DNA of 64,000 bases from Acidimicrobiales bacterium (GCA_965216355.1 CBDCFR010000013.1:588883-652882); one strand, 5' to 3'; counted from the stretch's first letter, positions 22,752-28,096 are shown. Numbers and translations: made by a program. Notes: generated from the sequence alone by a model not told the origin.

Positions 22752-25523
22752 TCAGCCCTCGTGGCGATCGATTGGGCGCCCGCAGATGGTAGACCGATCG
22801 TCGTAAGCGATGACAATGGATCGCCGTGTCGTTTCGCGGAGGTTGAGCCCCGGCCAGAGTTGATGGTGCGACATGGTCACGTCCCACTTCGGCGCCTCCT
22901 CAGATGTCTCAATCGCCCAACCGGTAATCTGCCATAGACCTGCGCCGTTCTCCGCCCAACAGATATCACTGAAATAGCCCACGCCTCCGCCTCGGGAGAA
23001 CGCTCCCAGCTCGGTCCATGAACAGTCGCCGAGGTGACCGTAAAGGATGAAAGTCAGGGTGTTGGCTCCAGTCGACTGATGCACCAGCAGTTCGGACTGT
23101 CCATCATTGTTGACGTCGATCGCCTCGGGCTTCTCCTGGCCAATCACATCTGGCTGGGCTGGTAGAGGGCGGCACGTCTCAATGTCGTCGGGGAGGCTGC
23201 CCTGCTGTTCGCCGCTGTTGTGCTCACCATCTCGTTTGATTTCCGCGTCGCTCTCGACGTCTCCCTCGACGTCCTCCTCTAGTTTGGTCGACTGATCGTC
23301 GGCGACGGAGGCTCCAACATCTGGCTCGCTCGCGGCCGTGGGTAGCGCGAATCGGTCCTGGAATGGCGTCCAGGACTCGGGCCGTACGGTGGGCCATTGA
23401 AGCGCCGTCAATAAGGCTAGGCCAGTCAGCGCTGCCGCAACCAATAGCTCCCTTTGGACCACTCCCGACCATTTCCCACGGTGGCTTCGCCCTGATTGAT
23501 TGACTACCGATGGAGTGGCATCCGCCAGTTGGGCGTACTGCACCATCGCCTGATCGGTCGGTGTCCACCCGGTGGCGGAGCGTGACAAGTAGCCGCTTTC
23601 GACGGCACGGTCGGCGAATCGGGTCGGCCTCCATCCACTCCCACTCACGCCTGAGACAAGCCCGGTCACCAAGCGGGCGAACATGTCGGTCTTCGCCACC
23701 AGGCCGAGAACGAACACATGAGACACACCCATCGACAGCGCCGCGATCAACGGCGCTCGGTCAACCAACACCTGGTGAATCTGCCACGGGTCCCACACCA
23801 ACTGACCGATCGAGACCAGCACGGCAGCAAAGGCTGACGCCATGACCGCTGTCGGCATCAGAAGTGTTCCGATGGCCACACCACCAATTATCGCCACGGC
23901 TAGCTGTCGCCTGGCCTGACCCTGAGGAGATCCGGCAGCGTCCGACGAACGCGAGCTCATTGTGGCGGCGGTGGCCACGATTAGGGCGGCGGCGATGAGT
24001 CGGTAGACCAAGTGGGGTAGGAGCGGTTGAAACGTGAAGACGACAAACAACCCGACTGCTAAGGCGACTGGCACCGTGCGACGGTGTGGTGCCCATCGGG
24101 TAAAGGTCGGCACCGGATCCATCCACTCGCTGGCGGCGGCTGAAAACACGGCCACCGCCAGGAGCAAACCGATCTGTGAGAAAGTGGGCGTAGGTATGGC
24201 TGCAACCCGTTCAGCCCGGCTCATCAAATGCTCGTACACCGGAGCCACTCCGTAGCGCAACCAAACCATCGTCACCACAACCGCTGCCATCGCGGCGGCC
24301 GCGCCGATCACGAGTTGGCCGGATAGTCGTTCCGCTGTTGCCGTTCGTCGGTTGACCAGGAGATCTGTGCGCCACAACCCCTGACCGGTCGACTTTTTGG
24401 CCGTGCGGTCCAGCACGACCAGTGCCCTGCCATCGCTGGGACGTCCCGTGGGCGATCGTTCGGTGGCCCAAGCTGTCGCTACCGCGGCCATCAACCGGAC
24501 GTCCTGCCTGTGGCGGCTGGTGTCGGCGTCGGTGGGGCCGTCCTTGGGACTGTCCGGCTGTTGCAAGTTGCGGGTTACGACATCTCGAGTTTCGCTGTGG
24601 CGTGCGAGCCCGGCCAGGGCCGCCACCCACGAGGAGTTGGCCAAGACCGAGCAGAGCACCGGATCGAGCAGCACCTCGTCGAGTATCGGATCGTCCACGG
24701 CCGCAAGCCGCCTGCGGATCGTTGGGACGTTCGGTTGCTCAAGCGTGGTGGCCTTTGACCACATTCTTTGAGTGCGACCTTGGATCCACTCCGCCGATTC
24801 GCAGTCGGCCAGCACCACCATCCGGTCCGGCGTTGGCCCGTTATCGACTGCATCGCTCACCTCGGTGAGCAGCCTGGTAGCCATCTCCTCGGCCTCGGCC
24901 CGCAGCAGATCGATACCGCAAAGAACAACCGTGCAACGTCTGATAATCTCCTTTGAGTCCGTTTCCGCGTCTGGCCGATCGAGCCGTATTCCGATTTCGC
25001 GGAGATGATGTTCGACGAATCGGTTCCACGAGAGCGGTTTACGGTTCGTGTCCAGCACCGACCAACGGCCGGCGTCGAGCAACAGAACCGGCAAGTCGCG
25101 ATCGAGCTGCGATCGGACGAACTGTGCCATCCAGAGGCTGCGGTCAAGCCCGGCCTCGGCGACCAAAAGTTCAATCGATCCGTCCGGTTGTTGAGTTAAA
25201 CCCTCCAGTTCCACCTCGTCGACCCATGTTTCAAGGTCTATGGCCCATTTGTCCCGAACCAGCGCCGCCGTCTCCTCGGCTCGCCTTAGTTCTCCATGCG
25301 GGCCGAGCTCATTGGCGAGCATCGTGTCGCGTAGCCGCATCTCATTGCTCTGCTTTCCTGCCTTCCGGTCGGTTGGCGGTCGCAGCAATGTGATGAGCGC
25401 AAACGCCGCTGGAAGAGGCCAGAGTTGCATGATCGACCTACCTTGCAGCCACCACCATGGAACGACAACAGCAGTGGCCAGGACATTGATTGCCGGCCAT
25501 TGCAGTGCCTTCAACCGTTTCAT
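22752..25523 (-). CDS. polytopic membrane protein with a degenerate NACHT/STAND-like cytoplasmic domain and an extracytoplasmic FG-GAP-like C-terminal module
   Basis: A 923-aa protein with two N-terminal TM helices. A NACHT-like layout follows with non-canonical motifs: LLVAEAGLDRSLW at the Walker A position, RRCTVVLCGIDLL at the Walker B position, MVVLADCES, and LLDPVLCSVLA. About 10 TM helices come next, then an acidic linker (EEDVEGDVESDAE) and the C-terminal module IDVNNDGQSELLV...DCSW...DICW. Confidence 0.75.
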   Translation of the reverse strand: MKRLKALQWPAINVLATAVVVPWWWLQGRSIMQLWPLPAAFALITLLRPPTDRKAGKQSNEMRLRDTMLANELGPHGELRRAEETAALVRDKWAIDLETWVDEVELEGLTQQPDGSIELLVAEAGLDRSLWMAQFVRSQLDRDLPVLLLDAGRWSVLDTNRKPLSWNRFVEHHLREIGIRLDRPDAETDSKEIIRRCTVVLCGIDLLRAEAEEMATRLLTEVSDAVDNGPTPDRMVVLADCESAEWIQGRTQRMWSKATTLEQPNVPTIRRRLAAVDDPILDEVLLDPVLCSVLANSSWVAALAGLARHSETRDVVTRNLQQPDSPKDGPTDADTSRHRQDVRLMAAVATAWATERSPTGRPSDGRALVVLDRTAKKSTGQGLWRTDLLVNRRTATAERLSGQLVIGAAAAMAAVVVTMVWLRYGVAPVYEHLMSRAERVAAIPTPTFSQIGLLLAVAVFSAAASEWMDPVPTFTRWAPHRRTVPVALAVGLFVVFTFQPLLPHLVYRLIAAALIVATAATMSSRSSDAAGSPQGQARRQLAVAIIGGVAIGTLLMPTAVMASAFAAVLVSIGQLVWDPWQIHQVLVDRAPLIAALSMGVSHVFVLGLVAKTDMFARLVTGLVSGVSGSGWRPTRFADRAVESGYLSRSATGWTPTDQAMVQYAQLADATPSVVNQSGRSHRGKWSGVVQRELLVAAALTGLALLTALQWPTVRPESWTPFQDRFALPTAASEPDVGASVADDQSTKLEEDVEGDVESDAEIKRDGEHNSGEQQGSLPDDIETCRPLPAQPDVIGQEKPEAIDVNNDGQSELLVHQSTGANTLTFILYGHLGDCSWTELGAFSRGGGVGYFSDICWAENGAGLWQITGWAIETSEEAPKWDVTMSHHQLWPGLNLRETTRRSIVIAYDDRSTICGRPIDRHEG

Positions 25524-27268: not shown

Positions 27269-28096
27269 CTAGCCACCGACTCCGTACCATTCCATGTTGT
27301 CGGTGCGGATGGCGAATTGATCAGATACCGGTCGGACGTCGAGCGTTGAACTGGTTTCGCCGCTGAAGCTTAAGGTGACCGGGTAGCGAACATCACCGAC
27401 GGCGTTGAGTGGCGGCCCTACTCCTGAACTGGTGCGACTAGTGGCATTGATGATGACCGTGGCAAGGGGAATCAGCCTGCCGTCAGCCGGCATGATGTCG
27501 GCCATCGTCAATGCATCGGCGTTTGGTTTCGGGTCGTCCACTTGCCGGTAGGTTGCGGCCAGTGGGTCGCTGAATTGCTCCACGTACCAGCTGATGGTTG
27601 GTTGCCGGATCGCGGTGTCTCTGTCGTTGAAGATCGCGAGATACAACGTGCGATTGCAGTCTCCGTCGCTGCAGCGGCTGGCCTGTCCACCGGCTGGACC
27701 GAGGCGATCTTCCAAGAGTTGCTCTTCCACCGCAGTCCAGTCTCCTGCGTCGGCGACAACGAGATATGGAGCGAAGTCCGGGGGCAGCGCGTCCAGGCCA
27801 CCCAGCACGTCGTTGACCGGCGGGCCGATCAGGTAGTCGATTCGAATTCCCTCCTCTGCGGGCGGCCTGTTTATGAAATAGGAGGCTGCTGCCCAGACAA
27901 GACCTCCGGTTACAAATAGGGCACCTATAACCATCACGCGATTACGGTATTTCTCCCAATCAACCACGCCTAGGGTCGGAATTGACTTGGACTGAACAGC
28001 AGCGGCGATAAGGAGCAGCAGACCAAATGCAATAATCCCGCCGGGTCCGCTCAGAGACATCTCCGAACTGTAGTCGTCCGATCGGAGTGGCTTCAA
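27269..28096 (-). CDS. two-TM membrane protein with an extracytoplasmic domain (hypothetical), first gene of the minus-strand trio
   Basis: A 275-aa ORF with TM helices GGIIAFGLLLLIAAAV and VMVIGALFVTGGLVWAAASYF. It ends 6 nt before the next gene. Confidence 0.65.
   Translation of the reverse strand: MKPLRSDDYSSEMSLSGPGGIIAFGLLLLIAAAVQSKSIPTLGVVDWEKYRNRVMVIGALFVTGGLVWAAASYFINRPPAEEGIRIDYLIGPPVNDVLGGLDALPPDFAPYLVVADAGDWTAVEEQLLEDRLGPAGGQASRCSDGDCNRTLYLAIFNDRDTAIRQPTISWYVEQFSDPLAATYRQVDDPKPNADALTMADIMPADGRLIPLATVIINATSRTSSGVGPPLNAVGDVRYPVTLSFSGETSSTLDVRPVSDQFAIRTDNMEWYGVGG

Follow-up and report, generated by a model that had tools for sequence, protein, structure and literature searches.

Three adjacent minus-strand genes, here called C, B and A from 5' to 3', lie within a 64,000-nucleotide stretch of an Acidimicrobiales bacterium genome (GCA_965216355.1, CBDCFR010000013.1:588883-652882; hereafter the window). 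They form a discrete, translationally coupled unit, with gene order and overlap conserved at a second locus, and all three products are membrane-anchored. The best-supported statement about this trio is that it is genuine, very rare, fast-evolving and lineage-restricted, with two known loci among approximately 15 billion proteins. The three proteins fall outside every described family by sequence and are new in that limited sense, which does not amount to a new mechanism. Current evidence supports, with a probability of roughly 0.45, the interpretation that A, B and C are subunits of one rare, lineage-restricted, three-subunit membrane complex of the cell envelope, the function of which is speculative. 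A previous description of the region, made by a model from the DNA alone (the original prediction), had centered on an inactivated NACHT/STAND module in protein A, and this element of the description found no support.

The tight coupling of the genes, which the original prediction had pointed out, was read directly in the sequence. A spacing of 6 nt separates C from B, and B and A are joined by an ATGA that contains both the stop of the former and the start of the latter. Gene C starts with TTG and displays GGAGGG just 5' of this start. The G+C content by codon position follows the coding-type pattern in all three genes (GC1 > GC2 < GC3). All peptide strings quoted in the original prediction were found where it had placed them. 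In A, these are LLVAEAGLDRSLW (residues 119-131), RRCTVVLCGIDLL (195-207), MVVLADCES (235-243), LLDPVLCSVLA (285-295), IDVNNDGQSELLV (802-814), ILYGHLGDCSW (826-836) and DICWAENGAGLW (853-864); in B, they are WDISGDGVSELLI (467-479), YILDPDSCQW (494-503) and DIWCIGDDNTLY (526-537). The elevated AT content also attributed to the region is real in a mild form, with a GC of 0.604 against 0.621 for the window and a third-position GC (GC3) of 0.66-0.70 against 0.73-0.84 for the window's metabolic genes. The GC3 of the trio nevertheless resembles that of nearby lineage-specific genes, including the CHAT gene, the sigma factor and several unknowns. The divergent intergenic stretch upstream of C (28097-28153) showed no sigma-70 consensus.

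Independent evidence comes from the second locus. A full HMMER scan with A, covering 1.84 billion representatives that stand for those approximately 15 billion proteins, returned a sole relative, P0003 (A'; 815 aa, E 5.7e-6). This protein is encoded on a 482,805-bp contig of an uncultured Acidimicrobiales metagenome-assembled genome (MAG), where genes for proteins of 272 aa (C') and 578 aa (B') precede A' on the same strand and in the same order as in the window. The gap between C' and B' is 0 nt, and B' and A' share the ATGA overlap seen in the window. A and A' display the same overall architecture, and their terminal domains are 33% identical (E 6e-14). The base composition of the two genomes differs clearly, with a GC of 0.62 in the window and 0.55 in the MAG, and no gene beyond the trio was common to the flanks compared. 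On the MAG side, a perfect 10-bp inverted repeat (ccctttgagt...actcaaaggg; L001 7404-7437) lies between the upstream PLD-like gene and C', probably as the terminator of the PLD-like gene, and a 279-nt gap follows A'. Because only the trio is common to both loci, and because the hairpin precedes C' and the gap follows A', the conserved unit is exactly the trio. The grouping of these three genes, as originally proposed, is thereby borne out in a related genome. The coordinates of the individual features are listed in Table 1.

Table 1. Features of the trio and its counterparts. Ranges are nucleotides of the window, or of the MAG locus where L001 is named; rows for cysteines give residue numbers.
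Feature	Position	Strand	Size, basis or similarity
Gene C	27269-28096	minus	275 aa; ORF (open reading frame) call
Gene B	25520-27262	minus	580 aa; ORF call
Gene A, polytopic subunit	22752-25523	minus	923 aa; ORF call
A residues 1-48, two N-terminal transmembrane helices	25380-25523	minus	hydropathy; low-confidence model
A residues 49-403, cytoplasmic segment	24315-25379	minus	~355 aa; orthologue alignments
A residues 404-711, ~9 transmembrane helices	23391-24314	minus	hydropathy, low-confidence model
A residues 712-783, acidic linker	23175-23390	minus	sequence
A residues 784-923, extracytoplasmic C-terminal module	22755-23174	minus	~140 aa; 33% identity to P0003; four Cys
B residues 447-580, C-terminal module	25523-25924	minus	probable paralogue of the A module
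Intergenic, divergent, between gene C and the DUF427 gene	28097-28153	.	presumed operon promoter region
C'	L001:7449-8267		31% identity to C, full length, E 1e-34
B'	L001:8268-10004		25% identity to B, E 9e-27
Cys of A terminal domain	window 784/834/855/914; MAG 680/732/753/811		
Cys of B ectodomain	window 269/329/447/501/529/570; MAG 284/342/454/503/535/576		
Cys of C domain	window 142/147; MAG 140/146		

Further occurrences were sought in several types of sequence collection. Profile scans of genome, metagenome (twice) and viral (three times) collections yielded no additional locus, and neither did two rounds of plasmid tblastn. Word-indexed searches with A and B across 5.8 billion clusters recovered only the proteins themselves, and a profile of C added nothing beyond self and the MAG proteins. 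Since the search with B missed B', which BLASTP recognizes at 25% identity and E 9e-27, the negatives of this tool are weak, including those for B-like or C-like proteins elsewhere. Pfam, NCBIfam and PADLOC models gave no match to A, B or C. When full proteins, isolated domains and orthologues were all considered, only chance-level matches appeared (DUF2062, PPA1309_fam, Kelch_6, DUF1177 and PAC2), and that to PPA1309_fam failed to recur in the orthologue. Searches of the PDB by sequence and by profile, with A, B, C and the N-domain of A, returned nothing.

Protein A displays the most elaborate anatomy of the three. Hydropathy and positive-inside tallies, with helix boundaries taken from a low-confidence model, suggest 11 transmembrane (TM) helices, an N-terminus inside and a C-terminus outside, so that the soluble segment would be cytoplasmic and the terminal domain extracytoplasmic. 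Basic loops at residues 468-483, 525-540 and 632-686 fall on the same side as the soluble segment, and a conserved basic cytoplasmic loop (W-RPxRxxDRAVxxGxLxR, residues 631-650) precedes the last TM helix. The tail that contains the linker (714-923) holds 39 Asp or Glu residues against 15 Lys or Arg, whereas the linker of A' is rich in Ser, Thr and Pro and not acidic. The TM helices are the least conserved part of the protein. These observations agree with the initial description, which gave this polytopic protein a cytoplasmic domain and placed its C-terminal module outside. The public annotation (P0001, 892 aa) begins at M32 and leaves out the first TM helix. In the MAG, A' also starts within the ATGA overlap, and the two orthologues can be aligned across the first TM helix. 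The 923-aa form, with one more TM helix, is therefore probably the correct one, which suggests a change to the database gene start.

Protein B begins with a signal-anchor helix (residues 1-25). The large domain that follows (26-446) is predicted to be extracytoplasmic and leads into a four-cysteine (Cys4) module, so that about 555 aa would lie outside. The ectodomain is probably beta-rich or propeller-like. For example, a PD40 repeat in B' comes close to its threshold (E 5.6e-4, 20.2 bits versus a cutoff of 20.9). There is no Pfam match in the window protein itself and no significant internal repeat in B or B'. Protein C, the best conserved of the three subunits, has two TM helices (residues ~17-75) together with a conserved ~200-aa domain that bears the motif PLNxxGDVRYPV. 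The orthologues differ at about 70% of their residues, yet the cysteines in the predicted outside parts of the three proteins are all retained, in number as well as in position, and the counts are even (four in the A tail, six in B, two in C). The 49-403 segment of A, on the other hand, holds four cysteines in A and three in A', only one of which is common. This contrast points to disulfide-bonded exported domains as opposed to a cytoplasmic one and is the main argument for the topology, including the orientation of C.

A second link between the proteins lies in the Cys4 modules that terminate A and B. The two are probably paralogues, at least as regards the first half of each module. A direct BLASTP comparison of A and B reaches only E=0.072 over 33 residues, whereas hhalign with 2-sequence profiles, which include the orthologues, yields P=3.7e-4 across 67 columns, and the score of 27 (without the realign step) lies above 400 of 400 column shuffles (mean 12.2, sd 2.2-2.6). 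In Smith-Waterman shuffle tests of the four A/B pairings, three had p values of 1e-4 to 7e-4, and the remaining one had a p value of 0.07. A hidden Markov model (HMM) built from the two A modules found the C-terminus of B' as its best non-self match among 918 ORFs (E=0.0064). In the four-way alignment, cysteines 1, 2 and 4 align exactly and cysteine 3 falls within one or two columns, with spacings across the four copies of 50-54, 21-28 and 41-59 residues. The A module is predicted to be beta-rich. The four modules also align in a loop of the form D-x-[NST]-x-D-[GD]-x-x-[ED], after which come hydrophobic strand residues (DVNNDGQSE in A, DISGDGVSE in B, and DVNGDDISE and DITGDGFDN in the remaining two). 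DxDxDG is a general type of calcium-binding loop, and the module loops, of the DxNxDG type, are probably Ca2+-binding. The proposal that the two C-terminal modules align above background thus receives moderate support from the hhalign value, the shuffles and the four collinear cysteines present in all four copies. Its companion proposal, that the module is FG-GAP-like, stands with regard to the loop type. The family assignment does not, as FG-GAP_3 matches the A module only below threshold (E=0.086, 13.9 bits versus a cutoff of 26.9) and the other three modules not at all. No further copy of the module was found in the window or at the MAG locus.

The cytoplasmic segment of A requires separate consideration, given that it was originally taken for a NACHT/STAND module with replaced catalytic residues. 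Under such a scenario, A would act as a degenerate pseudo-NTPase and oligomerisation switch, and the trio would serve in signalling or in defence against phages, with its sensor on the outside. Several features lend this idea some appeal. In low-confidence models, the conserved alpha/beta core (residues ~115-260) follows the order strand-helix-strand-helix-strand-helix-strand, then helices, as in P-loop NTPase cores. For the model with a predicted local distance difference test (pLDDT) score of 37.5, the top 50 Foldseek matches comprise only P-loop NTPases (among them F1-beta, RAD51 paralogues, KaiC, SRP GTPases and APS kinase), and none is significant. The best local hhalign alignment, also non-significant, places RRCTVVLCGIDLL on the Walker B of NLRP3. 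The trio also displays low GC3 and a very patchy distribution, as is frequent in accessory or conflict genes. Moreover, bacterial NACHTs with C-terminal TM segments and inactive STAND domains have already been described (Kibby et al., bioRxiv 10.1101/2022.07.19.500537; Kaur et al. 2020 as cited therein). For this reason, the novelty argument of the original prediction would be weaker even if a dead STAND domain were present.

The remaining evidence makes a degenerate NACHT/STAND switch very unlikely. NACHT, STAND and AAA profiles gave no match to the isolated domains of either orthologue in Pfam at E<=10, and none at any threshold, and a PDB profile search with the cytoplasmic domain returned nothing. 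The hhalign comparison with the NLRP3 NACHT yielded P=0.53 and a probability of 0.1%; it rests on this one eukaryotic NACHT, the sequence of which was validated against the PDB. A search for bacterial NACHTs on plasmids, with the NLRP3 NACHT as query, produced no match. The Foldseek matches include no NLR or other STAND protein among the top 50, and their best E value is 0.049, with TM-scores of 0.1-0.2 and root-mean-square deviations of 13-17 Å. Neither GK[ST] nor [AG]xxxxGK[ST] occurs anywhere in A (923 aa) or P0003. Where Walker A would be expected, A has AEAGLDRS and A' has ADDDLERL. At the Walker B-like position, A has VVLCGIDLL, which keeps only G-h-D, against IVVSPPKVV in A'. CGIDL of A hence corresponds to SPPKV in A', and LLDPVLCSVLA is likewise not conserved. 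The NACHT-specific Walker B signature is D[GAS]hDE (Kibby et al., bioRxiv 10.1101/2022.07.19.500537).

Length provides a further argument. Residues ~300-400 of A are not conserved. The window protein has 90-100 extra aa in the cytoplasmic segment, which lack conservation, and the part conserved between the orthologues spans only about 150-195 aa. A NOD module (NBD, HD1 and WHD) needs about 300 aa or more. As A' offers only some 195 aa between strand 1 and the next TM helix, there is no room for this tripartite arrangement. PADLOC detected no defence system in the trio, the orthologues or the neighbours, which gave only generic PLD and CHAT domain matches; a defence island was accordingly rejected for either locus. 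A CheY-like receiver domain, suggested by 'VVADDD..R' in the orthologue, was discarded as well, owing to the lack of a Response_reg match, the absence of the acidic pair in the window protein and incorrect spacing. The cytoplasmic domain lacks every NTP-binding signature and would be unable to bind a nucleoside triphosphate in the canonical way. Its predicted secondary structure fits a Rossmann-like or P-loop-like alpha/beta core. The models thus give a faint hint that the domain may descend from some NTPase-type core, which is not evidence for NACHT.

Taken together, these observations are best accommodated by the three-subunit envelope complex. In such an assembly, A would cross the membrane 11 times, with an alpha/beta domain of some 150-200 aa on the cytoplasmic side and a beta-rich module held by disulfides on the outer side, and B would be a signal-anchored, propeller-like ectoprotein ending in a paralogue of the A module. 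The paralogous modules, each with a putative Ca2+ loop, would most likely dock B onto A outside the membrane, and C would join through its two helices and its own outside domain. Speculatively, the complex may bind or handle an extracytoplasmic ligand or envelope component, and the TM bundle of A may relay the outside state to the nucleotide-independent cytoplasmic domain. The complex would then be a sensor or scaffold rather than an NTP-driven switch. Several points weigh against this proposal. Only two loci are known, so co-occurrence statistics are minimal, and no family match of any kind (Pfam, NCBIfam, PADLOC or PDB) exists for the proteins. AlphaFold2 models from 2-sequence alignments are unusable (pLDDT 33.5 for full A, 37.5 for the N-domain) and give no support to the folds, to the propeller in B or to the docking of A and B. 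The relationship of the modules is limited to about 40-67 columns, the hhalign probability is only 37%, and a reciprocal HMM built from B alone reaches A at just E=0.74. The topology of C is ambiguous from charge alone and relies mainly on the conserved cysteine pair.

The principal alternative is a machine for envelope biogenesis or transport, in which A would be a transporter, flippase or polymerase-like protein, B a periplasm-side scaffold and C an accessory subunit. We regard this option, which draws on analogy, as somewhat unlikely. The set of subunits resembles ESX components, given that A combines 11 TM helices with a cytoplasmic domain, B a single TM helix with a large ectodomain and its predicted disulfides, and C two TM helices with a ~200-aa domain. 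In architecture only, the trio is analogous to EccD/EccB/EccE or to GT-C enzymes with outside C-terminal domains. The neighborhood adds a cell-wall ligase of the LCP (LytR-CpsA-Psr) type in the window and a secreted beta-helix protein and a thioredoxin-like protein in the MAG, yet the neighbors differ between the two loci. No sequence similarity links the trio to EccB, EccD, EccE, GT-C, MmpL, Wzy or any transporter family, and TM helices that form the least conserved part of A would be unusual for a catalytic or translocating core. A bolder formulation than the envelope complex itself describes an undescribed trans-envelope receptor, found so far only in Acidimicrobiia-type actinobacteria. There, the polytopic subunit would use a P-loop-less, NTPase-derived alpha/beta domain as a nucleotide-independent cytoplasmic output. 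Calcium-binding modules locked by disulfides, present as paralogues on the receptor and on its dedicated propeller-like partner, would gate this output from outside; we consider this version unlikely. The thought that the three ORFs are decaying or spurious frames in a GC-rich genome, with motifs shared by chance, draws on the lack of homologues in word-indexed searches and of family matches. It is barely conceivable in the face of coding-type codon-position GC, conserved overlaps, conserved outside cysteines and the recovery of all three proteins at full length in a genome of other GC (E 1e-34 to 6e-14), and the second locus excludes it.

Regarding genomic context, the window trio is flanked on one side by a convergent LCP gene, a cluster with an extracytoplasmic function (ECF) sigma factor and a CHAT-TPR protein, and on the other side by a divergent DUF427 gene. 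The MAG flanks contain the PLD-like gene, the beta-helix protein and the thioredoxin-like protein. No mobile-element genes were seen at either locus, and no rRNA or tRNA gene was found in the 64-kb window. Two genes downstream of A' (L001 12727-15932), for the beta-helix protein (755 aa) and, overlapping it, for the thioredoxin-like protein (316 aa; the match is sub-threshold), have no counterpart in the window; the product of the second could be a thiol-disulfide oxidoreductase for exported proteins. At 16151-21387 of the window, a minus-strand gene for a CHAT-protease and TPR protein (853 aa) diverges from a plus-strand cluster that encodes an unknown 452-aa protein without Pfam match, an ECF-type sigma factor overlapping it by 20 nt and an unknown 160-aa protein overlapping the sigma gene. 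The GC3 of this cluster is low, like that of the trio, and the cluster could be a sigma/anti-sigma module.

Other parts of the window display distinct features. The lowest GC (0.53-0.59) occurs at 1-12300, where long ORFs without Pfam match (516, 459 and 465 aa) adjoin a 918-aa PKD/Big_9 surface protein and a GDSL lipase; this block may consist of lineage-specific or acquired genes. The minus strand carries, at 28964-29575, a gene for a 203-aa membrane protein of unusually low GC (0.536), with only sub-threshold matches to DUF1206 and DUF7139. Further along the same strand (29614-32493), a 959-aa secreted protein combines lamin-tail, endonuclease/exonuclease/phosphatase and C-terminal SdrD-B/CarboxypepD_reg-like domains, and represents a large extracellular enzyme of nuclease or phosphatase type. 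A 490-aa FAD-binding protein at 37273-38745 contains a clear cytokinin dehydrogenase (Cytokin-bind) domain (E 1e-29), a family that is mostly plant-associated. At 47789-51145, an 1118-aa fusion of biotin carboxylase, biotinyl carrier and carboxyltransferase corresponds to an actinobacterial-type acyl-CoA carboxylase.

Should the trio prove to be a complex, the poorly studied class Acidimicrobiia would gain an uncharacterised envelope machine, together with three new protein families and one new small extracytoplasmic module defined by Cys4 and DxNxDG. At present, the trio represents well-delimited genomic dark matter. The notion of a dead NLR in the membrane is removed as unsupported.

Comparison with known systems helps to delimit the trio further. 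Like NACHT and STAND proteins, A possesses a cytoplasmic alpha/beta domain of alternating strands and helices, here tied to TM helices, a stretch (VVLCGIDLL) resembling hhhhDGhDE and a patchy, accessory-like distribution. Unlike them, it has no Walker A, no conserved D[GAS]hDE and no profile match or significant structural match, its core is too short for NBD, HD1 and WHD, and the domain is placed between the second and third of 11 TM helices, in a protein with two dedicated exported partners. The C-terminal modules share with FG-GAP/VCBS repeats (FG-GAP_3, PF13517) a DxDxDG-type loop, a predicted beta-rich character and an extracytoplasmic location. They differ in having one loop per module, no 7-blade array and four conserved cysteines, a trait for which FG-GAP repeats are not known, and the match stays below threshold. 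Regarding TolB/PD40 propellers, B and B' lack significant internal repeats, and no Pfam match exists in window B; the likeness consists of the one near-threshold PD40 repeat of B' and of matching SW-x-x-G-x-hhh strands in B. The core of the ESX, or type VII, system (EccB, EccD and EccE) offers an analogy only. The trio shows no Ecc sequence similarity and has no EccC ATPase, WXG substrates or MycP nearby. Moreover, the cytoplasmic domain of A is inserted after TM2 and not N-terminal, and EccE has its domain in the cytoplasm, while that of C probably lies outside. What the two systems have in common is an actinobacterial setting and three co-encoded membrane subunits, one with a single TM helix and a large ectodomain, another with 11 TM helices and a cytoplasmic domain, and a third with two TM helices and a soluble domain.

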